Below, piece by piece: positions 34,973 to 50,637 of a stretch of 64,000 nucleotides of DNA. Every line of letters begins with the position of its first letter. Within the stretch, counting starts at the first letter, position 1. This stretch comes from Alphaproteobacteria bacterium UBA1218 (GTDB lineage: Bacteria > Pseudomonadota > Alphaproteobacteria > Rs-D84), in NCBI GenBank assembly GCA_002309215.1, contig DBXG01000023.1, forward strand, positions 10,086-74,085, read 5' to 3'. Under the pieces are notes generated by a model. The model was not told the DNA's origin and did not search any database. It saw only the letters and a program-made list of their open reading frames with translations. A program made the translations under genes and the position numbers.

Positions 34973-35047
34973 GCGAGCATAGTTCAAAGGCTAGAATGCA
35001 AGCCTTCCAAGCTTGAAATGAGGGTTCGATTCCCTCTGCTCGCACCA
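34973..35047 (+). tRNA. tRNA-Gly (anticodon UCC)
   Basis: Hand-folded cloverleaf. Acceptor GCGAGCA/TGCTCGC, D stem GTTC/GAAT, anticodon stem CAAGC/GCTTG with loop CTTCCAA, T arm GAGGG-TTCGATT-CCCTC, CCA encoded. Confidence 0.85.
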
Positions 35048-35050
35048 CGG

Positions 35051-35092
35051 ATTTTGGTTATCGCGTGCAAAAGCACACGATTATAAAAATCC
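35051..35092 (+). other. nested inverted-repeat hairpin immediately 3' of tRNA-Gly (GGATTTT...AAAATCC around GCGTGC-AAAA-GCACACG)
   Basis: Seen directly. Probably a processing or termination structure between the two tRNA genes. Confidence 0.4.
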
Positions 35093-35142
35093 AGTGTCAC
35101 GCCGTAGCAACCTGTTATTGGCGAAGGCGGACAAAAAATAAA

Positions 35143-35228
35143 AAGTTTCGGGCGCGCGCCGGAGTCGGAGAGCCGGGGCAGACTGTAAATCTGTTGTCTT
35201 TGACTGAGGTGGTTCGACTCCACCCGCT
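35143..35228 (+). tRNA. tRNA-Tyr-like (anticodon GUA), type II with long variable arm
   Basis: Anticodon stem GCAGA/TCTGT with loop CTGTAAA. D stem CCGG/CCGG with A14 and G18G19. Variable hairpin GTC-TTT-GAC. T arm GGTGG-TTCGACT-CCACC, A73 and CCA. Caveats are a C4:U69 mismatch in the acceptor stem and C at position 8. Confidence 0.6.
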
Positions 35229-35241
35229 CCCACCACGAAAA

Positions 35242-39329: not shown

Positions 39330-39600
39330 AACATCATCCAAACAATGCTCTCTTGCCAAGAGTGGTATAAGTTCCCCGCCCAAAGTCAAGTTCTCCCTGT
39401 ATGATGGGAACTTGCTCTCGAACTAGACTGATACTAGTTCCCCACCCGTGGCGGGGTGGATTGTGACGCAGTCACAAGACGGGGCGGGTATTCCGGTGTG
39501 TTCGTAATGCCGAACGTCTGGAACAGAAATTATTTGCCCCCTCCCCGCCATTCTGGCCCTCCCCTCCGTTGGAGGGGAATTAAAATCGATCAATAATAAA
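39330..39600. repeat. GC-rich mosaic palindromic repeat cluster, copy 1 (modules C-A-B)
   Basis: Hairpin modules CCACCCG/CGGGGTGG, GTGAC-GCA-GTCAC and CCCCTCC/GGAGGGG. About 140 nt (39445-39585) are roughly 85% identical to 42352-42490 in the same orientation, and 39406-39460 matches 42484-42535. Confidence 0.8.
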
Positions 39601-39709
39601 AAATCTGCACATAGCAAAGAAAGACTTTTTAACATTTTGCAAAATAATATTTTGTTTGTGTGCCTTTTTATGATATAATATCAATAAACTTAAATGTAGG
39701 AGTCCACAA

Positions 39710-40075
39710 ATGAAAGCACAATTTTTGATTATTTTCGGCGTATTCTTTGGCTTTGTATCGATTGCAAATGCTGCGCTGGTTGTAAAAAACGATACCATGG
39801 CCAAAAATGAAGCATACGAAGAATTGACCCTGGAAGATGCGCGTACAATCCAAACATTGGAAAACGATATTCGTATCTTGGATTCAGAAATTAAAAAGTG
39901 TGAAAAATCAAAGAAAGGTTGGATTGCTGGCACAGTAATTGGTAGTGCTGGCGTTGCTGCAACTGGTATCGCTGCGATTGTTCAAGGTGTTCAAATCAGC
40001 AAAGCAAAAGACCAAAAGAAAGCGCTTGAAAAAGAAACAAAAGAATTGAAAGCAAAAAACGAAAAAAATAAATAA
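39710..40075 (+). CDS. secreted/membrane glycine-zipper protein (121 aa), paralog of the N-terminal module of the next gene
   Basis: Signal peptide, coiled-coil, KKCEKSKKGWIAGTVIGSAGVAATGIAAIVQGV glycine-zipper segment and a Lys/Glu-rich tail. Confidence 0.55.
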   Translation: MKAQFLIIFGVFFGFVSIANAALVVKNDTMAKNEAYEELTLEDARTIQTLENDIRILDSEIKKCEKSKKGWIAGTVIGSAGVAATGIAAIVQGVQISKAKDQKKALEKETKELKAKNEKNK

Positions 40076-40101
40076 AGTTTGATTAACCATAGGTTCTTTT
40101 T

Positions 40102-42096
40102 ATGAAAAAAGCATTTATATCCAGTTTGATAATGTCATTTACGTGTATCGCATGTTATGCCCAGCATCCACGTATTACGCAATTAATTGCTGAAAAGCAG
40201 GCCAAGATGGAAAAATTGGAAAAGTGCCAGGGAACAACCAAAAGTCTGAAGATTGCTGGTATATCAACATTGGGTATAACTGCTGTTGGTGTTGGCGCCA
40301 ATATTGCAGAGGCTGTAGTTCTAAATAACGCCAAGGAAGATGTTGCCAAGGCAAAAAAAGCACGCGATGACGAACAAAAGAAGAAAAATGAACGTGAAGC
40401 CGCAGAAAAGAAAAGACAAGAAGAAGAAAGACAAAGATTGGAAGAAGAAAGAAAAAGACAAGAATGCGACAGTAGAAACGCTGTGTATGTCAATGGTGTT
40501 TGCGGTGGATGTAAAGACGGTTATATCGCAGATACAAGTGGTAATTGTGTAGAAAAACCGAAACCAGATGAACAACAAGGCGATGGCGATAAGCAGGAGG
40601 ATAAAAAATCTGGCGAAAACGAAAATGTCAAACCAAGTGCACCTAAAAAAGTTCCGGCCCAGGAAAGTGTTATAGATGTTGATTTTGATCAAATTGTAAA
40701 GTATTCACAATTGAAAACAGGAATCACAAATAAAATCAAGACCGATTATGAATGCGAAGGTAATACAGACCCAGAATGGGTATTTGGGTTTACTTGGAAA
40801 ACAACGTGTGGTGGCAAAACATACAATATCGCATTCCGTGGCGTAGATTGTGAAATCCAAGGCAGAGAATTCCAAGATGGCAAATGTATAGAAAACGCAG
40901 ATTTACCGAAAAACGAATGTGAACAGTATGGTACAATGCAAGGTAACATTTGTGTCTGGGCAGAAACCGTAGAAATTGGAGATGAAGACATCAAAAGACA
41001 TATTTTCGATACATTGAAAAATGATTATGGTTTTACAAACGTATCTGAGCAATCTAAATCTGAAACGGCATACATATTTAGCGCAAAAACACCAGAAAAA
41101 AATGTTCTTTTAACACTTCAGTTCAATGTAAAGTGTCAAAATGAAAAACAAAAAGTAGATACAAATAGCAATAATTGTGTTGATGCAGATAAAGTGACTG
41201 CGAAACCGGCAGATAGTAAGCCAAAGGCAGTTGCAGGTGATTTTGTTGAAACACTTTGCAAAAATAATGGAGGAACATTCAATGATAAAAGCCTTGTATG
41301 TACTAATCTAAAGGTTAACACATTGGCAAAATATAACGAAATAGTAAATCAGCTGAAAAACAACAATTTTAGATGCATAGAAGACAAAATGACTTCTTGT
41401 AATGATGGTAAACACGTGGTGGACATTGAACGTGATGGTGAAACAATGTTTGGGTATATTTGTAGAGAAAGCGGTTGGCACTATGATGCTGGTCGTAAAA
41501 CCTGTTATGTTGGTGGTAGTGTAAATACTCCTGCAAAACCAACGACTGCAAAAGATTGGCTTGCACAAAAAGCAAAAGCAGAATTTGATGGCAGAGGTTG
41601 TTCTTCAGAAAAATTTGAAGTTACTGATACATATACTGCGATTAAATGTAATAATGGATTTTCGCTTGCTTATTCATACAAAAACTTAACCTGTGGAGAG
41701 AACGAAGTCTTGAGGGGCTTGAGAGAGGAGGCGCAGTGTGTAGAATGCGCAGATGACGAATGGGTTAAAGATGGCGAGTGTAAACCAGTAAGATGTAAAG
41801 ATTATGTGTATACAGTCGTAAAGAATCATGATTGCTATTGGAAGGCTGGCAGGTTCACCATCACTGATTTGGAAGACGGAAGAGTTAAAGATAAAAGTGA
41901 GGCACGAGACTGGATAAACAAATGGTTTACCAAAGCTCTTAATCAGCGGAGCGCCATGGCAACTGAGTTTAACTGTAAGGTTACTGAAGCAAATTATGTT
42001 ATTGGTAAAGATGTTGTTGAATGTAGCCTTGGTAATACAACATTTGAATTTAAGATTCAGAACATAAGTGGTGCAAGTGTCGGTGATAAACTCTGA
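40102..42096 (+). CDS. large secreted Cys-rich protein (664 aa) with glycine-zipper N-terminal module and KE-rich coiled coil
   Basis: Signal peptide. EKCQGTTKSLKIAGISTLGITAVGVGANIAEAV parallels the preceding protein. Then a KKRQEEERQRLEEERKRQ charged helix, followed by about 500 aa with about 40 Cys in repeated CxxC / C...C patterns. Confidence 0.6.
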   Translation: MKKAFISSLIMSFTCIACYAQHPRITQLIAEKQAKMEKLEKCQGTTKSLKIAGISTLGITAVGVGANIAEAVVLNNAKEDVAKAKKARDDEQKKKNEREAAEKKRQEEERQRLEEERKRQECDSRNAVYVNGVCGGCKDGYIADTSGNCVEKPKPDEQQGDGDKQEDKKSGENENVKPSAPKKVPAQESVIDVDFDQIVKYSQLKTGITNKIKTDYECEGNTDPEWVFGFTWKTTCGGKTYNIAFRGVDCEIQGREFQDGKCIENADLPKNECEQYGTMQGNICVWAETVEIGDEDIKRHIFDTLKNDYGFTNVSEQSKSETAYIFSAKTPEKNVLLTLQFNVKCQNEKQKVDTNSNNCVDADKVTAKPADSKPKAVAGDFVETLCKNNGGTFNDKSLVCTNLKVNTLAKYNEIVNQLKNNNFRCIEDKMTSCNDGKHVVDIERDGETMFGYICRESGWHYDAGRKTCYVGGSVNTPAKPTTAKDWLAQKAKAEFDGRGCSSEKFEVTDTYTAIKCNNGFSLAYSYKNLTCGENEVLRGLREEAQCVECADDEWVKDGECKPVRCKDYVYTVVKNHDCYWKAGRFTITDLEDGRVKDKSEARDWINKWFTKALNQRSAMATEFNCKVTEANYVIGKDVVECSLGNTTFEFKIQNISGASVGDKL

Positions 42097-42120
42097 TTCA
42101 ATATTTACAAAGTTCTAACA

Positions 42121-42147
42121 AATCCCCGTTGTACGGGGATTTTTTTC
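42121..42147 (+). terminator. rho-independent terminator after the 664-aa gene
   Basis: ATCCCCGT-TGTA-CGGGGAT followed by T7. Confidence 0.75.
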
Positions 42148-42179
42148 AATTCCCACCTGATACTGGTTCGCTCGACATT

Positions 42180-42540
42180 ACGTGTCTATGCGTATACCGT
42201 AACGACTACGAGTAAGTGAAAACGAACAAGGCGAAGTTTGAATATTAAGGAGTGCCACGCAGGGCGAAGCCCGAGTGATTTCGCTACACTTCGTTTGCAA
42301 AATCTACTTGTATTCCCCACCCGAAGTCTCGACGTAGCGATAGCGAAGACGGACGTGGCGGGGTGGATTGTGACGCAGTCACAAGACGGGGCGGGTATTC
42401 TGGTGTGTGCGTAATAACGAATGTCTGGAACAATAACAATTTGAACCCTCCCCGTCCTGCGGGCCCTCCCCTCCAATGGAGGTGAACTTGCTCTCAAACT
42501 AGACTGATACTAGTTCCCCGCCTGGGGCGGGGGGGACCGC
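42180..42540. repeat. GC-rich mosaic palindromic repeat cluster, copy 2 (X-A-B-C)
   Basis: Shares modules A and B (42352-42490) and module C (42484-42535) with copy 1. The 5' part has additional CGAAG-containing palindromes. Confidence 0.8.
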
Positions 42541-42605
42541 TTGCGGTGGGGAGGGTTGTGTTTTTAATATTGAACAAAACATATTTTCAACATAAAATTA
42601 AAATT

Positions 42606-42953
42606 ATGTACGGTTATAATAAACAACTTAAAGGTTTAGCACGTGCCAATCGTAATGCTGGCAATTTAGCCGAAGTATTACTTTGGCATGAATTACAACG
42701 TTGTAAACTTGGGGTCAGGTTCACTCGACAGAAACCTATTGGAAATTATATTGCTGATTTTTATTGTCGTGAAAAGAAATTGGTTATCGAAATAGACGGT
42801 TGGTCACATGACAATAAATACGAATATGATAAAACACGCGATGAATATATGAAATCTTTGGGGATACATGTATTAAGAATATCAGACAAAGATACAAGAA
42901 AAGATATGGCAAATGTCTTGATATGGATAAAGCATAACATAGACACAATATAA
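42606..42953 (+). CDS. DUF559-family endonuclease-like protein (Vsr/PD-(D/E)XK fold)
   Basis: About 115 aa. GNYIADFYCREKKLVIEIDGWSHD...D matches the DUF559 core (D...E.D). Embedded between repeat copies. Confidence 0.65.
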   Translation: MYGYNKQLKGLARANRNAGNLAEVLLWHELQRCKLGVRFTRQKPIGNYIADFYCREKKLVIEIDGWSHDNKYEYDKTRDEYMKSLGIHVLRISDKDTRKDMANVLIWIKHNIDTI

Positions 42954-42959
42954 AATACA

Positions 42960-43022
42960 ACCCTCCCCGTCGCTTCGCGCCACCCCGCCTCAGGCGGGGA
43001 ACTTACTCTCGAACTAGGTTGA
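42960..43022. repeat. short third copy of repeat modules (B-end plus C-start)
   Basis: CCCTCCCCG...GGCGGGGAACTTACTCTCGAACTAG is related to 39540-39430 and 42440-42505. Confidence 0.6.
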
Positions 43023-43032
43023 GATAAATATT

Positions 43033-43275
43033 CTATTTCATTGGTGGAAAGCAATTATCCGAATCGTTTGGGCAACAAACCATCCAACCACCGCCTGCAT
43101 CAGTATAAACCTCCCCTTCGCAACAGCCATGTTTATCGGGTTTATTACCACTGGGGCATGTCACAAAGAAACTGTGCCAATTCGCAACAAAAAAATGTGT
43201 GCTGTATCCAAATGCCCAACCAACCAACACTGCAATAACGATGAACAGCCATGTATTATCTTTCGTCTTTTTCAT
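43033..43275 (-). CDS. small Cys-rich single-pass membrane protein (80 aa)
   Basis: N-terminal TM helix, then 7 Cys including CC pairs. Hypothetical. Confidence 0.35.
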   Translation of the reverse strand: MKKTKDNTWLFIVIAVLVGWAFGYSTHFFVANWHSFFVTCPSGNKPDKHGCCEGEVYTDAGGGWMVCCPNDSDNCFPPMK

Positions 43276-43284
43276 TATACCCCC

Positions 43285-43959
43285 CTATTCTTCTATGATT
43301 TTTTCCAATTGAATTATAAAATCAATAGCTGGATTGGTCAATTTCTTTGCTTTTTCCAACATTCTGGCTGCTTCATTTTGCATTTGCAGACGTTTATATG
43401 TTTCAACCATTTCTGTTGCTTCGCGCCTGTCATCCAATCTATCTTGATTCAAAGCACGTGCAACTTCCAAATCTTTTCGTGCCAATTCTTTGTACGCATC
43501 AGTATTTGCTTTGCAACCCCTGTCTGCTAAATTAGCATAAATCTTTGCACGATTTATGTAATCTTGGGCATCGTTTGATACGTCAAAATTCATATTACCC
43601 AATCTTTGCAACCATATTGCCTCAATCCTTTCACATGGAATATCTTGTGGCTTCATATTATTATGCTGTGGTATAAATTTTTTTGGTTGCCCAGGTTTTA
43701 TACGCTTGAAATTTCTGTTATTACAATTTTCAGAAAATATTTCATTTAATTGTCTTAACAAGTCTGGATTATTATTTTCTGCCGCATTGATAATTTGATT
43801 TGATATTTGCTGACATTGTGCCATGGACATAGTTGAATTATTTACGCGTGATGTTCCATTTATAATAAAACCTATGCCGATACCAAATATCAAAATGCAA
43901 ATCATACCGATTATGCCGTATATTTTGTATTTCAACACACTAGTATTTTGCTTTTTCAT
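43285..43959 (-). CDS. membrane-anchored hypothetical protein (224 aa), helical-repeat-like
   Basis: N-terminal TM, then a helical domain with a possible Sel1/TPR-like character. Confidence 0.4.
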   Translation of the reverse strand: MKKQNTSVLKYKIYGIIGMICILIFGIGIGFIINGTSRVNNSTMSMAQCQQISNQIINAAENNNPDLLRQLNEIFSENCNNRNFKRIKPGQPKKFIPQHNNMKPQDIPCERIEAIWLQRLGNMNFDVSNDAQDYINRAKIYANLADRGCKANTDAYKELARKDLEVARALNQDRLDDRREATEMVETYKRLQMQNEAARMLEKAKKLTNPAIDFIIQLEKIIEE

Positions 43960-45969: not shown

Positions 45970-47304
45970 CTATTGATTCAAGAAATCACGCAATTCATCA
46001 CCTGATAACGGTGTCATTTGTTTAACACTATTATTTGCATCTATGATAGAAATTAACCGCGGAGACATGAACACAACCAATTCTGCAAACGGACTTATCA
46101 ATGTTTCTGGTGTAGTCACAAAAGAATGTGTTGGTATACCAACAATTACATAGTTATCGCCAACATTTGATGGAATCTTGAAAGAAGACAATTCACCATT
46201 GCTGGTGCTAAGCACTATCTTCGCGTCAATCTTTTTTGTTTCTGCATAATTGCCGTATGTCCCTGTTGCGCCAATAATCAAATCTGTTTCCAGTCTGTCT
46301 TCCTTACCACATTGACCAATATCAAATCTTGATTGCCAGCCATTTGGTATCGCAAACGTCCCCTGGGAAATCAGAACGACATTAGCTTGCTGGGCCATAA
46401 ACTCTTGCAAAGTTTTTGTGTTTATCTCTGGACTTACCACCAGCGCACGTCCAACAACCCCAGGTATAGACATACGAATATTCTTATCGCCAAATGCAGG
46501 CAACATATTCATCCAAATAATCGCATCATCTTTTTTCGGATAAACACGATAAACATCAATGTCCCACGCCAGAACATATTTCTTTGATGCAACATCAGAT
46601 ATAATTTTTGCAACTTCGCGTTCAGTCTGATAATCCCCTTCGAACACAACAGTTTTTTCTTGCCAGTTTACCAACAAATTACGAATATCTGCACCACGCA
46701 TAGCATCCAACAGCGCCATTATCATAGTTTCATCTTTTGGCATTTTTATCAGCCACTTTCCATAACTCGTCAGACGAATTTCGCCAAACTCTGCATCATA
46801 AGAATAATAAACACGCCCCAACTTTGTCATCAATTCAATAGCATCCGCCAAAGCCCCAGATTTAATACCGCCACTAATTTTCTCAAAATTCGAGTTATCT
46901 TCCACCACAGAAATATCTGTTCCTTCAAGCAAGTTTTCCAATGCGTCCTTTACAGGAATCCTTTTGAAATCATAATCAGAAACTTGCAAGTCAGGCAATT
47001 TATCACCTGTATTCAAACGAACAATTTCTATTTTTTCTTCTGGAACCACAGACACGACACTTTGATGATTCCAATCAACAGTACACCTTTTTGGCAAATC
47101 CAGCGCAAACCGTTGTGCAGTATCTGTTGTCAAAGCCGCTTTTTTAGGAAAAATTGGCACAGAACGTTCATCGATAACAAAATTTTCAACCACGTTCACC
47201 ATATCATAAGAAACAGGCTCTTGCTTTTTAACACAGCCAGCAAACAACATAGCCCCAATTCCAAGATATATTAAAACATTAGTTTTTATCTTATTTTGTG
47301 CCAT
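45970..47304 (-). CDS. hypothetical lipoprotein (444 aa) upstream of lolCD
   Basis: Lipobox LFAGC. No recognised catalytic motif. Co-oriented with the lol genes at a 10-nt spacing. Confidence 0.45.
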   Translation of the reverse strand: MAQNKIKTNVLIYLGIGAMLFAGCVKKQEPVSYDMVNVVENFVIDERSVPIFPKKAALTTDTAQRFALDLPKRCTVDWNHQSVVSVVPEEKIEIVRLNTGDKLPDLQVSDYDFKRIPVKDALENLLEGTDISVVEDNSNFEKISGGIKSGALADAIELMTKLGRVYYSYDAEFGEIRLTSYGKWLIKMPKDETMIMALLDAMRGADIRNLLVNWQEKTVVFEGDYQTEREVAKIISDVASKKYVLAWDIDVYRVYPKKDDAIIWMNMLPAFGDKNIRMSIPGVVGRALVVSPEINTKTLQEFMAQQANVVLISQGTFAIPNGWQSRFDIGQCGKEDRLETDLIIGATGTYGNYAETKKIDAKIVLSTSNGELSSFKIPSNVGDNYVIVGIPTHSFVTTPETLISPFAELVVFMSPRLISIIDANNSVKQMTPLSGDELRDFLNQ

Positions 47305-47339: not shown

Positions 47340-47663
47340 CTAAATATTCATAATTTTTTCAAACTCTTCCAAGGTCATTTCATGTACAGGTTTTTGATTT
47401 GGTGTCACTAAACTTTTGACACTTTCATATTGCTTCTCAAACAAATTCATCACAGAAGAAATATTCTTGTCAATTGTCACACCAGTTTTTTTCAATCCGT
47501 TACCGTATTCCACAATAAACTCCAGAACATCTGCCGCAAAAAAACGACCGACATAGTTTTCCATTGCAATTCCGCCTTTTGCCACACAAATTGCAGACAA
47601 AACACGCGTCATTTCATTATAAAAATTAGCCAATTTTACATAATTTTCAACTGATATTGCCAT
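47340..47663 (-). CDS. hypothetical protein (107 aa)
   Basis: ORF only. Not recognised. Confidence 0.35.
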   Translation of the reverse strand: MAISVENYVKLANFYNEMTRVLSAICVAKGGIAMENYVGRFFAADVLEFIVEYGNGLKKTGVTIDKNISSVMNLFEKQYESVKSLVTPNQKPVHEMTLEEFEKIMNI

Positions 47664-47737: not shown

Positions 47738-48118
47738 ATGAGAATGAAAAAACTATTTTTATTTTTGGCTTTAACGGCCTGTGCATCTGCTAATCGTGGT
47801 TCGATTGATGATGCTACTATATTGAATTGGGAAAACGATGCTGTGACCACCGAACAATTTGTTCGCGACCATAAATCTTGTTTGGGAATTAAGAACAAGG
47901 ATTACACCCCAAAATCCCGTCTTGCTAAATTGCTATCACCAAATCAGCATGATCAAATGCCTGACTGGGATGGCTTGTGGGTAACATTTCAATCTAATGA
48001 ATACAAAGATGTTGGACAACGGGCATTGATGTCTGTGCCACCAAACACCGCATCTAAAACAATTGGATATTATCGTAAGTGTATGATGCAACGTGGTTAT
48101 TTGTTGCGCGCAAAATAA
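47738..48118 (+). CDS. hypothetical lipoprotein (126 aa)
   Basis: Signal peptide with lipobox LTAC. Confidence 0.4.
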   Translation: MRMKKLFLFLALTACASANRGSIDDATILNWENDAVTTEQFVRDHKSCLGIKNKDYTPKSRLAKLLSPNQHDQMPDWDGLWVTFQSNEYKDVGQRALMSVPPNTASKTIGYYRKCMMQRGYLLRAK

Positions 48119-48157: not shown

Positions 48158-48856
48158 ATGGTTGGCATGAAGAAATCCATATTCTTTTGGTTGTATTTTG
48201 TTGCGTCAATCATTTTGGCGACCTATTTTGCATGTCGCATTATAACCAGCCAAATGGGCCGCGGTCCCATATCGCTGGTAAAGCATATTCATATAACCAG
48301 TAATTCCCAAGATTTTAATCCAGACACAATTAAAATGGCGATTGGCATTTCTGGGGAAACAAAAATTCGCTCGATAGATTTGCACCAAACAAATAAACGC
48401 ATATTAAGCGTCCCCGGAATAAAGAAATCTGCCACGCGCCGATTACCTAATGGCGACATAATTATAAAATCTGAAAAATACGATGTTGTTGCTATGTGGT
48501 CTGATGGTGTTTCTTGTTATCCGTTATCTTCTGACGGAACAAAGATAAACACACCATCCGATACTTGCAACGAAAACTCTTTAGTTTTTCGTGGTGAATT
48601 GCCAAATGATTTATCAGAAGTAATCGCCAGCGCATCTGTCCTGTCTGAATACATTGATTATTTAGATATGGTTGAATCAAGACGTTGGAATATACATACA
48701 AAAAACGGCATAACTATATACTTACCAGAAAATAATTTCACAGATGCAATCAACAAAATAAATGTATTAAATCAAGCGAATAAATTATTATCACGAAAAC
48801 TGGATATTATTGATATGCGTGATAACACCAGAATCTTAGTAAAAACAAAAAAATGA
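48158..48856 (+). CDS. ftsQ: cell division protein FtsQ-like
   Basis: N-terminal TM anchor, POTRA-like region, position immediately upstream of ftsA. Confidence 0.55.
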   Translation: MVGMKKSIFFWLYFVASIILATYFACRIITSQMGRGPISLVKHIHITSNSQDFNPDTIKMAIGISGETKIRSIDLHQTNKRILSVPGIKKSATRRLPNGDIIIKSEKYDVVAMWSDGVSCYPLSSDGTKINTPSDTCNENSLVFRGELPNDLSEVIASASVLSEYIDYLDMVESRRWNIHTKNGITIYLPENNFTDAINKINVLNQANKLLSRKLDIIDMRDNTRILVKTKK

Positions 48857-50637
48857 ATCTTATAAATTCGTCTTTTTTATGTCTGGATATTGGAACATAT
48901 GGTGTTCGTGGTTTTGCACATTCTGTACGCAATGCGAAAATAATACAGTCTGCAACTCATTTTGTAAAAAACACAAATACTTTATTTGCTTTGAATTGTG
49001 TCATTGATGAATTGGAGCAACAATTACAAACACATTTTAATTCTGCTTTTGTGACTGGTAATTTTGGTGATGCAGATTTTCAGACTGTTTCTGACACACT
49101 GATTTGGCATGACGAACACAAAATAAACGAACAAGATTTACGCCGTCAAATTGCAAAAATAACACCGCCTGATGATTTTTACACAATGCATATTGTGCCT
49201 GTCTTCTATGGAACAAAGTCAATAAAAAACATCAGCAACACACCTGTTGGACACATCGATACAGAATTAAAATCTATTTTCAGTATAATTTCATACGAAC
49301 AAAATAAAACTAAATATATTTCCGATATGATGCGCCGGTCGCATATTAAACCCGCTGGATTTTTCGATCCAACTTTTCTACACAATGCTATCTACAGAAA
49401 AACAAAAGAAAAAGTTTTACTCTTAGATTTGGGTCACGAATATACAACTGTATCAATCTGGACAGATCGTGGACCATTGTATTTCAATAAAATAAAATTT
49501 GGTCAAAACGATATAACAAACGCGCTTGCAACAGGATTAGACATCAGCACACCAGATGCAGACATATTAAAAATAGCAACTTCAAACGCTTTACCAAATG
49601 AAATGGACAGATTTACACCTGCTGATTCATCTGAAAAATTTGCACAATTTTCTCGCGCAGATGTAAATGAAATATTTGTTCCAAAACTAACACAATTAAT
49701 AAATATTGTTTATGAACAATCAAAAAAATATATCGAACAATATGCGCCTGAAAAAATCATATTAACTGGTGGTGGGACCGCAATCGAAAATATCGACATA
49801 TTTTTACAGCAAATGTTCAATTTGCCTGTTGATAACCAAACAGAAAGCGCAACAGTAAACGCATTATCTGAATATGTATGGGAATTAAATCTACCAAAAC
49901 GCAACGCATACATACAAAAACAAATGAAACTGCAAAATACGCTCAAAAAAATTACGCGTTTATTCCATAAAAAGAAAATCATCAAAAAGAAAAAGTTTAT
50001 TCCAATTATGCCCAGCACTTTATGTTTCAATATGAACGACATGTCAACGTATACGCTATTTGCGTCTGGCGGAATCTCTATGATACACGTTGATATAATG
50101 GACGGTTTATATGTCGAAAAAATCGCAGGCGGAATAAATGAATTGGCAAAAATAAGAACAAATACGAACGCCCATTTACATGTTCACCTGATGACAGAAA
50201 GCCCATCAATATGGGCACGCGATGCTATAAACGCTGGGGCAGATACAATTATAATATCAACAAACACATCTGGTGTTCGTGATGCCATAAATGTCATAAA
50301 AAATGCTGGCAAGCGTTGCGGAATTGCTGTGAATCCTGAAACATCAATTGATATAATTGTCCCAGTATTGAAAAATATTGATGAAGTTATGGTAATGGGC
50401 GTAAAACCTGGCGCAGCAGGTCAAACATTTGATGAAAATATTTTACAAAAAATACGAATACTGAACTACACACGCAAAAAACATGGATTAAAATATTTAA
50501 TTAGTGTTGATGGTGGCATAAATCCTGAAACCGCCAAATTATGCTGGAATGCTGGCGCAGACTTATTGGTCAGCGGTTCTTATCTTGCACGTGCTCATGA
50601 TTTTCCTTTGGCTGTGCAAAGTTTATTGAAGCACTAG
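48853..50637 (+). CDS. ftsA: FtsA (residues about 1-385) fused in-frame to ribulose-phosphate 3-epimerase (about 390-594)
   Basis: The N-terminal part aligns by eye to E. coli FtsA (LDIGT, PVG, LDLG..TT, ILTGGG). The C-terminal part is an unmistakable Rpe (IMPSTL..., HVDIMDG, MGVKPG, VDGGI). No in-frame stop between them. Confidence 0.6.
   Translation: MNLINSSFLCLDIGTYGVRGFAHSVRNAKIIQSATHFVKNTNTLFALNCVIDELEQQLQTHFNSAFVTGNFGDADFQTVSDTLIWHDEHKINEQDLRRQIAKITPPDDFYTMHIVPVFYGTKSIKNISNTPVGHIDTELKSIFSIISYEQNKTKYISDMMRRSHIKPAGFFDPTFLHNAIYRKTKEKVLLLDLGHEYTTVSIWTDRGPLYFNKIKFGQNDITNALATGLDISTPDADILKIATSNALPNEMDRFTPADSSEKFAQFSRADVNEIFVPKLTQLINIVYEQSKKYIEQYAPEKIILTGGGTAIENIDIFLQQMFNLPVDNQTESATVNALSEYVWELNLPKRNAYIQKQMKLQNTLKKITRLFHKKKIIKKKKFIPIMPSTLCFNMNDMSTYTLFASGGISMIHVDIMDGLYVEKIAGGINELAKIRTNTNAHLHVHLMTESPSIWARDAINAGADTIIISTNTSGVRDAINVIKNAGKRCGIAVNPETSIDIIVPVLKNIDEVMVMGVKPGAAGQTFDENILQKIRILNYTRKKHGLKYLISVDGGINPETAKLCWNAGADLLVSGSYLARAHDFPLAVQSLLKH

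Follow-up and report, generated by a model that had tools for sequence, protein, structure and literature searches.

Bacteria of the order Rs-D84, Candidatus Enterousia among them, are widespread in the guts of ruminants, horses, chickens and humans, and they are suspected of living off other cells. What might an apparatus for contact with such cells look like? The question is raised by two adjacent genes, here called A and B, that lie in a 64-kb stretch of DNA ('the window') from Alphaproteobacteria bacterium UBA1218, a member of this order. An earlier reading of the letters alone (the 'sequence-only reading') had singled out these two open reading frames (ORFs), and they are present on the + strand where it placed them (Table 1). 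Each encodes a protein with an N-terminal module of the same design; B continues into a long, cysteine-rich tail. Retained by all species of the order that were sampled, sometimes in two or three copies per genome, with a near-invariant core and an apparently outward-looking domain that is swapped between strains, the A–B pair is an obvious candidate for the interaction apparatus.

The reading that we favor, tentatively and with somewhat less than even confidence, is that A and B, linked by a disulfide, make up an envelope anchor or membrane-insertion module, on which a variable, disulfide-rich ectodomain resembling epidermal growth factor (EGF) is presented for contact with partner cells. The observations beneath it are the structure of the operon, the paralogy of the two modules, the pairing of A with B, the conservation of the module against the mosaicism of the tail, the marginal hydrophobicity of the module's central segment, and the lack of a match to any known family.

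The homologous loci come from metagenome-assembled genomes (MAGs) of Candidatus Enterousia and of related gut and rumen Alphaproteobacteria in the order Rs-D84. Enterousia genomes are 0.75–1.0 Mb in size and fermentative, without respiration or standard transporters, and an obligately symbiotic or parasitic life, in which metabolites are drawn from other cells, has been proposed for these organisms (PMC12306168). The host of the window is probably a partner-dependent bacterium of this reduced-genome kind (~0.9 Mb). The sequence-only reading had likened the architecture to that of surface or secreted proteins of intracellular bacteria; the reduced genome and the probable dependence on a partner fit that comparison (PMC12306168), and an intracellular life is at most a possibility.

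One module, two proteins

A and B begin alike. Each starts with a signal peptide and proceeds through an amphipathic helix, a single cysteine, a Gly/Ala/Thr-rich hydrophobic segment of ~24 residues and a helix rich in lysine and glutamate, in that order; the succession of signal peptide, helix, cysteine, hydrophobic segment and charged stretch that had been noticed at the outset is thus present in both proteins. The signal peptides are predicted to be of the signal peptidase I type, with cleavage between …ANA and A in protein A, and between …CYA and Q in protein B. The cysteine within the signal peptide of B might suggest a lipoprotein, a possibility that we rejected: it occupies position −3 of an A-x-A-type site and is absent from many homologs. 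The module cysteine is found 7–8 residues N-terminal to the hydrophobic segment, in the contexts KKCEKSKK (A) and EKCQGTTK (B), and the A-family consensus of the helix that contains it (residues 46–69) is TLENDIRILDxEIKKCEKSKK. The segments quoted in the sequence-only reading are present, IAGTVIGSAGVAATGIAAIV in A and IAGISTLGITAVGVGANIAEAVV and KKRQEEERQRLEEERKRQ in B. The name given there to the hydrophobic part, 'glycine zipper', fits loosely: the segment is indeed Gly/Ala-rich, but the glycine spacings, 4/3/5 for A and 5/5/2 for B, depart from GxxxGxxxG.

Are the two modules related by descent? Pairwise, by BLASTP, A and B match weakly (E = 0.035). We therefore compared families: 61 A-like proteins, ~125 aa in length, and 48 B-like proteins that are alike only over their first ~100 residues. 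Aligned by hhalign, the two family profiles match over 89 columns with a score of 38.6 (E = 2.6e-6), whereas none of 21 controls, reversed or column-shuffled, scores above 19 (E ≥ 0.013). When the B-module alignment is broadened by divergent members that bridge the families (…KCEGKKQGWMIAGIS…, for example), the match extends to 102 columns at a probability of 96.2% (E = 2.2e-9); without the signal peptides it weakens to E = 2.8e-4. That A and B are paralogous through their N-terminal modules, as the sequence-only reading had surmised, is well supported, then, but not proven, and the 61 and 48 relatives establish that the module is conserved beyond the pair itself.

Conservation peaks in the middle of the module. 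The majority-residue fraction in the A family is 0.85 across the helix and cysteine and 0.90 in the hydrophobic segment, against 0.43 in the signal peptide and 0.48 in the C-terminal tail. The B module displays the same pattern, and the module cysteine is invariant in both families. Measured against strain L049, the ratio of non-synonymous to synonymous substitution (dN/dS) comes to 0.13 in A and to 0.08 across the B module (residues 1–75).

The genes also travel together. A search by sequence pattern through 185 579 species genomes recovered 43 loci in 38 genomes, all of them MAGs of the Enterousia/Rs-D84 kind, and A directly precedes B in 42 of these; the 43rd ends at a contig edge. An A gene stands ahead even of P0047 and P0048, the two B proteins that have diverged furthest. 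The spacing between the two ranges from a 4-nt overlap, frequent outside the window (in L050, for example), to ~100 nt, and the simple pair is sometimes elaborated into A–B–B (L001, L006, L008), A–B–A–B (L027) or B–A–B (L019). Some genomes carry two or three A/B loci. A is an obligatory and highly conserved partner that precedes each long gene, or set of such genes; this is the main regularity of the system, and the sequence-only reading missed it. In one subclade the B proteins are only 109–167 aa long and comprise the module and a 4-Cys knot, so the module pair appears to be the core of the system, and the tail its cargo.

When B residues 1–113 were used in a HMMER scan of 1.84 billion representative proteins, 394 clusters were found to carry the module, 218 of them at E ≤ 1e-10. 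Among the best 150 of the 394 matches, the module lies at the N-terminus or within ~50 residues of it, in proteins of 84–877 aa with unrelated tails, and the architecture proposed initially—an N-terminal anchoring or oligomerization module followed by a variable C-terminal domain—is borne out on this larger scale. The viral contigs searched contained no relatives, and a phage origin for the pair, or a reading as spanin or holin, was rejected for that reason.

Two genomic contexts recur. In one (15–17 loci), A–B is flanked by pnp–ybaB on one side, and by rlmN, a surA-like gene, lptD and lptF/G on the other. In the second, to which the clade of the window belongs, it is flanked by a gene of the GT8 kind and, further downstream, by lolD–lolC. 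No third gene is common to both contexts. Related strains keep the pair at this site whether or not they have the repeat that lies upstream of it in the window, and in other species the pair sits among core genes. The sequence-only reading had placed the pair in an accessory locus and ascribed to it a GC content higher than that of the flanking genes. The GC content is 0.374, against 0.370 for the window as a whole, and because it matches that mean, because the position is the same in related strains and because the neighbors elsewhere are core genes, we judge A–B to be a core, syntenic, lineage-wide operon rather than an island.

Scans of A, B and their families against Pfam, NCBIfam, PHROGs and PADLOC returned sub-threshold, compositional matches only. 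Profile searches of PDB with the A family and with the B module returned nothing meaningful: matches at E ~0.1–0.3 to de novo TIM barrels, to CalpL and to subunit c of ATP synthase (E = 0.33 for the weak match of the B-module profile to subunit c). The proteins thus seem to belong to no described family among those searched, in accord with the sequence-only reading, and the conserved pair would represent a new two-protein anchoring module.

The cysteine-rich tail of B

B contains 31 cysteines, rather fewer than the 40 or so first estimated, and 28 of these lie beyond residue 121. The long charged helix of the module gives way to an EGF-like, 4-Cys hairpin that recurs in other family members (P0004, P0006, P0007 and P0025), and this to an acidic, Lys- and Pro-rich linker followed by ~470 residues of Cys-containing modules. 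The EGF-2 signature in its strict form, C-x-C-x2-[GP]-[FYW]-x4-8-C (PROSITE EGF_2), is found in 16 of 151 family tails, 18 times in all, where shuffled sequences lead one to expect 0.2, a ~90-fold enrichment; B of the window carries a variant, CGGCKDGYIADTSGNC, that is one residue longer. Across the family, tails range from 0 to more than 1000 aa in length, and their cysteines are even in number in 104 cases out of 144. Pfam matches to the tails that recur, all sub-threshold, are to disulfide modules of eukaryotic type: CPL1-like (8 of 85), CBM_14, cEGF, EGF_MSP1 and EpCAM_N. The tail of B is an orphan and, on account of the EGF-2 enrichment, the even cysteine counts, these weak matches and the Pro/Lys/Glu-rich linkers, very probably an extracytoplasmic, disulfide-bonded modular domain.

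Structure prediction adds a little to this. The AlphaFold2 (AF2) models of full-length B (48 homologs) and of its C-terminal 215 aa (10 homologs) have mean confidence scores (pLDDT) of 55.8 and 57.8, respectively, and are too poor to be used beyond the level of secondary structure. At that level the tail appears as repeated units of a helix and 3–4 β-strands with paired cysteines, set among Cys-stapled hairpins. Foldseek, proposed at the outset as a source of structural matches, found nothing in PDB at E ≤ 0.001 for either model; some likeness to βαβββ/PepSY-like repeats is loose and falls short of significance. The sole confident part of the full-length model is the helix of residues 74–125 (pLDDT 80–90), residues 45–74 ahead of it being modeled as low-confidence coil.

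What sets the tail apart is its variability. A search with the tail alone among 5.8 billion proteins found only two close relatives, both near-identical. The tail is mosaic, its short modules being shared piecemeal with other members of the family. Between the window and strain L002 the flanks are 91–95% identical, and the 5′ module of B and its last ~130 nt are retained, but nt 40429–41967 have no detectable nucleotide similarity. Between the window and L049, a closer strain, 750 nt of the gene (codons 126–375) are identical without a single substitution, whereas the neighboring genes have diverged by 0.05–0.25 synonymous substitutions per site (dS). The remainder of the tail differs from that of L049 with dN of 0.07–0.18 and dN/dS of 0.3–0.7; for the neighboring genes dN/dS is 0–0.14, a hydrolase at 0.40 excepted. 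The identical stretch points to a very recent tract of recombination or transfer, and the pattern as a whole is, as we read it, the mark of an exposed domain that recombines and diversifies while the base beneath it is constrained.

Module, membrane and rival readings

The hydrophobic segments are peculiar. On a simplified Hessa-type scale, the predicted free energy of insertion (ΔG) is +2.5 kcal/mol for A and +3.8 kcal/mol for B, and the family medians are the same; transmembrane (TM) helices of a LolC-like protein encoded in the same window score from −0.7 to −3.8. There is no positive-inside bias, lysines plus arginines numbering 4.4 against 4.1 in the two flanks for A, and 3.7 in each for B, whose N-terminal flank is the more positive. 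In B, a polar stripe (T56, T60, G63, N67, E70) runs along the segment. Conservation extends to all faces, which would imply an element that packs against protein or changes conformation, rather than a passive lipid anchor. Marginal, Gly/Ala-rich segments of this kind are typical of membrane-active elements such as the tips of pore-formers, fusion peptides, and the signal-arrest-release (SAR) domains of phage endolysins.

How might such a pair work? According to our favored reading, both proteins would be exported by Sec, and their signal peptides cleaved. The conserved N-terminal helices of A and B would then pair, probably locked together by a disulfide between C64 of A and C42 of B, and the marginal Gly/Ala/Thr-rich segments that follow would pack against one another and insert into a membrane, more likely by dipping into it, or as a hairpin, than as classical stop-transfer helices. 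The K/E-rich helices beyond would form a stalk, ~50 residues and ~7 nm long in the case of B, and from this stalk would project the hypervariable, disulfide-rich ectodomain, EGF-like and α+β in its modules and exchanged between strains by recombination. Exposed at the surface, this domain might act as an adhesin, or as a variable surface domain, in contact with the partner or host cells upon which these bacteria are thought to depend. The A/B module could serve to mark the lineage and to localize the proteins, and the B tails would be candidate determinants of strain or partner specificity.

Several considerations weigh against this scheme. Its steps derive, every one, from sequence and from the low-confidence models described above. 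The simplest textbook topology for a protein with a cleaved signal peptide and one hydrophobic helix puts the Cys-rich tail in the cytoplasm, and if the segment were a true TM helix, this would clash with a tail that looks extracytoplasmic; insertion as a hairpin would remove the paradox, by leaving both ends of A and of B outside the cytoplasm. If the tail does lie outside, it would need a route across the outer membrane, and no secretion genes are linked to A–B. The host lacks a respiratory chain (PMC12306168), so oxidation of the classical DsbA/DsbB kind may not operate. The conservation of A–B adjacency partly reflects common ancestry within a single order, the dN/dS of the tail is raised yet remains below 1, and the ΔG scale, besides being simplified, takes no account of position.

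Closest in kind to A–B are surface proteins that combine a conserved anchor with a variable ectodomain. Variable surface proteins such as the VSPs of Giardia, the Vlp and Vsa lipoproteins of Mycoplasma and the Msp2 of Anaplasma have a conserved end, for anchoring or processing, and a hypervariable, recombining domain that is exposed. B likewise joins a constant anchor to a recombining tail, in an organism that likewise has a small genome and needs a partner, and its Cys-rich, EGF-like character recalls the Giardia VSPs in particular. As in this class, an export signal is present, and so is hypervariability at the strain level beside a conserved anchor; surface exposure and the binding of a partner are predicted. 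There are differences too. Where those proteins are held by a lipid, a β-barrel or a TM helix at the C-terminus, the anchor of A–B is an N-terminal helix/Cys/hydrophobic module of two proteins; neither silent donor cassettes nor extra copies were found in the 64-kb window; and there is no homology of sequence.

The segment itself may be compared with glycine-zipper segments (the N-terminus of VacA, lipoproteins of the Rickettsia 17-kDa/SlyB type, helix 1 of the ATP synthase c-ring) and with SAR domains. These, too, are Gly/Ala/Ser/Thr-rich, marginally hydrophobic helices of Sec-exported proteins, and they either pack closely together or pass from a soluble to a membrane state and back. The Pfam models Gly-zipper_Omp, Gly-zipper_YMGG and Rick_17kDa_Anti do not match A or B at E ≤ 1, however, and unlike the glycine-zipper lipoproteins A and B lack, besides the regular repeat, a lipobox (their cleavage sites are A-x-A in type, not L-[AS]-[GA]-C). 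Nor is the segment at the extreme N-terminus; both a cleavable signal peptide and a helix come before it.

Of the rival readings, the one that survives best, though we consider it unlikely, is that A–B is a miniature binary α-helical system for membrane insertion or pore formation. The tips of A and B would be driven into the membrane of a partner or host, in the manner of the heads of XaxAB and YaxAB; the tail of B would bind the receptor; and access to metabolites would be the reward. Most of its evidence is shared with the favored reading, from which it differs in the membrane that is targeted. The starting point is NF033928, the NCBIfam model for subunit A of the α-xenorhabdolysin binary toxin, which 54 of the 61 A-family members match (best E = 1.4e-7). 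The match falls always in the head region of XaxA (profile positions ~170–253 of 339)—coiled-coil helix, hydrophobic tip, coiled-coil helix—and A, in which residues 32–116 align with it weakly yet consistently, has the same succession of parts (residues 46–69, 70–94 and 95–121); in XaxA the two helices pair antiparallel, as those of A may do. Eleven A-family members match the model for NheC, in addition, and 16 of the 61 weakly match the fusion-peptide/heptad-repeat region of paramyxovirus F.

XaxAB and YaxAB resemble A–B further in being paralogous subunits encoded in tandem, with coiled-coil helices that flank a Gly/Ala-rich, membrane-entering tip, and the tip of XaxA enters the membrane only in part and activates the partner subunit (PMC6086661). 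A segment that is marginally hydrophobic yet near-invariant, and striped with polar residues in B, would suit such a role, as would the want of standard uptake systems in Enterousia (PMC12306168); and hairpin insertion would solve the topology problem here as well.

Against this stands the modesty of the matches: A of the window scores 24.6 bits, and the family 17–30, where the curated cut-off is 125, and no more than ~85 of the 339 profile positions are covered. At 121 aa, A is one third the size of XaxA (~340–400 aa), without the neck or the five-helix bundle of the tail, and the A profile finds no chain of the ClyA family in PDB. None of the 48 B-family proteins matches the Xax, Yax or Nhe models at E ≤ 0.05, and B has no similarity to XaxB. 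A and B have Sec signal peptides, whereas the Xax and Yax proteins are not known to have any; they have invariant cysteines, too, and B has its huge variable tail. Coiled coils adjoining Gly/Ala-rich stretches are prone, moreover, to compositional matches, and A and B weakly match DivIC, FtsL, LapA and the Rz spanins as well (E = 1e-3 to 0.07, below the cut-offs). The resemblance to XaxA is more consistent than that to any other family, but we regard it as analogy, not membership.

A bolder claim, which we rate as quite unlikely, is that A–B is a Sec-exported, disulfide-locked, binary membrane-insertion machine of a kind unknown until now, a miniature functional analog of the XaxAB heads or of the fusion peptide and heptad repeat of viruses. 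Were this so, the tips, invariant and Gly/Ala-rich, would penetrate the partner cell's membrane and the strain-specific, Cys-rich tail would pick the partner, and A–B would be an organelle of attachment and nutrient access that allows Rs-D84 bacteria, with genomes of <1 Mb, an obligately epibiotic or parasitic life in animal guts.

More doubtful again is the conventional alternative, that A and B are classical type-I bitopic proteins of the inner membrane. Once the signal peptide was cleaved, the short N-terminal helix would be periplasmic, the hydrophobic segment a true TM helix, and the K/E-rich helix and Cys-rich tail cytoplasmic, the tail perhaps binding metal and acting in the cell or in signaling. 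A protein with a signal peptide plus one hydrophobic segment of ~24 residues would adopt this topology by default. It would place the invariant cysteines at equal depth on the periplasmic face, suits the short, Lys-rich tail of A, and needs no translocation across the outer membrane; a Dsb oxidation system is possibly absent from a host that does not respire (PMC12306168), and the tail of B includes some CxxC motifs (CGGC, CVEC). The ΔG values predict poor stop-transfer, however, and the charges run the wrong way, lysines and arginines being balanced across the segment and the N-terminal flank of B being net positive and the C-terminal flank neutral, the opposite of the positive-inside rule. 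The AF2 models offer no confident helix for the segment, the EGF-type signatures and even cysteine counts point to disulfides, and cassette replacement and recombination between strains are typical of exposed proteins, not of cytoplasmic domains. If A–B is an ordinary inner-membrane pair after all, it becomes an orphan of interest to its own clade.

A hydrophobic helix directly before a charged coiled coil is the arrangement, too, of DivIC, FtsL and FtsB, of the Rz i-spanin, and of LapA, and spanins also employ intermolecular disulfides and paired genes. These proteins have an uncleaved N-terminal signal anchor, however, and the A/B matches to them are sub-threshold and compositional, with no phage context.

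An improbable reading, but one with some points in its favor, is that A–B is a housekeeping envelope pair, an order-specific tether between outer membrane and peptidoglycan, for example, or between membranes, with a tail that varies through relaxed constraint. The pair occurs in every genome with a complete locus and is kept in genomes of ~0.9 Mb; A is under strong purifying selection; and the neighbors include the envelope-biogenesis genes lptD, lptF/G and surA-like in 15–17 loci, and lolCD in the window. In a tiny genome, however, neighbors are mostly essential by default. Replacement of the whole tail between near-identical strains, the mosaic of modules and the recent identical tract do not resemble relaxed constraint, and neither does a tail length that extends from 0 to >1000 aa.

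The least credible reading, a polymorphic toxin of the contact-dependent-inhibition type with A as helper or immunity-like partner—a flavor that the sequence-only reading had hinted at, and one that the conserved N-terminal module on many unrelated C-termini, the tandem paralogs, the several copies in some genomes and the recombination in the tail do share with CdiA, Rhs and MafB—we hold to be very improbable, for a Pfam scan of 133 family members (48 + 85) found no toxin or enzyme domain in the tails, some of which are absent altogether or no more than a 4-Cys knot; A is upstream, under strong conservation, and shows none of the co-variation with the tails expected of an immunity protein; no gene follows consistently, there being a terminator and then DUF559, an 80-aa gene or rlmN, depending on the genome; no secretion system is linked; PADLOC and PHROG give no match; and viral contigs contain no relatives.

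The operon and its surroundings

The coordinates of the pair, its parts and its flanking signals are collected in Table 1.

Table 1. Features of the A–B locus, in window coordinates, with protein residues where these apply
Feature	Position (nt)	Strand	Residues	Remarks
GC-rich repeat, copy 1	39403–39600			53% GC; upstream of operon
Candidate promoter and ribosome-binding site (RBS) of A	39652–39702	+		Read directly from the sequence: TTGTTT (39652–39657), 13 nt, extended −10 TGaTATAAT (39671–39679); AGGAG RBS (39698–39702), 7 nt 5′ of ATG
Gene A	39710–40075	+	1–121	121 aa
A, predicted signal peptide			1–21	
A, variable stretch			22–45	
A, conserved helix			46–69	Invariant C64
A, hydrophobic segment	39917–39991	+	70–94	GWIAGTVIGSAGVAATGIAAIVQGV in the window; invariant, weakly hydrophobic
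A, K/E-rich tail			95–121	
Gene B	40102–42096	+	1–664	664 aa; stop codon 42094–42096
B, N-terminal module	40102–40464	+	1–121	
B, predicted signal peptide			1–20	
B, helix			21–50	Invariant C42
B, hydrophobic segment			51–74	IAGISTLGITAVGVGANIAEAVVL
B, E/R/K-rich long helix			75–121	
B, EGF-like 4-Cys hairpin module	40465–40548	+	122–149	C-x11-C-x2-C-x2-GY-x7-C
B, putative recombination tract	40477–41226	+	126–375	750 nt, 100% identical to strain L049
B, hypervariable tail	40549–42096	+	150–664	
Intrinsic-terminator-like hairpin	42120–42152	+		10-bp stem and T-run, 24 nt 3′ of B stop
GC-rich repeat, copy 2	42354–42536			57% GC; downstream of operon
GC-rich repeat, partial copy 3	42945–43022			Beyond DUF559 gene

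The pair looks like a self-contained operon, because A has an RBS and an extended −10 element of its own, only 26 nt separate it from B, in the same orientation, and a terminator appears to follow B. The promoter was not called by a consensus scanner; we infer it from our own reading of the letters, and the 5′ region of A in which it lies (39617–39709) is conserved in strains L001 and L002.

The direct repeats that bracket the operon, ~190 nt in length, are intergenic and contain GGGG…CCCC hairpins. At 0.53–0.57 GC, in a genome of ~37%, they alone are GC-rich at this locus. The sequence-only reading was right that they bracket the pair, but the upstream copy is missing at the corresponding site in L002, and fragments of the repeat occur also in L001, L002 and L017. 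A search of the repeats and the intergenic regions against Rfam yielded no match. They look like local insertions, akin to repetitive extragenic palindromes or miniature inverted-repeat transposable elements, and lie outside the functional unit. Between two of the copies is a gene for an endonuclease-like DUF559 protein (42546–42953, +), present in L002 and L003 and absent from the site in L001 and L049, a small, strain-variable insertion that adjoins the operon.

Further downstream, on the − strand and upstream of lolD, are genes for two hypothetical membrane proteins without a family match that are conserved in five loci of the clade. One, of 80 aa (43033–43275), combines a TM helix at the N-terminus with a tail of six cysteines (…CPSGNKPDKHGCCEGE…VCCPNDSDNC…), and suggests that the host makes other small, exported, Cys-rich proteins; the second (43285–43959) is of 224 aa. 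In the other direction, at a distinct spot that lies ~4.5 kb upstream of the operon, the content of genes next to tRNA-Gly and tRNA-Tyr (34973–35235) differs by strain: a PNPOx-like gene and an acetyltransferase in L001, a Zn-ribbon and a PQ-loop protein in L002.

Between lolC and ftsQ lie three ORFs with no Pfam match, of 444 aa (45970–47304, −), 107 aa (47340–47663, −) and 126 aa (47738–48118, +), for which orthologs are called in L001, L002 and L049. Another ORF, of 594 aa (48853–50637, +), joins an FtsA-like actin-fold cell-division domain (residues 190–329) to a complete ribulose-phosphate 3-epimerase (residues 399–578). The same fusion, an unusual one for a reduced genome, is called in L001 and L002.

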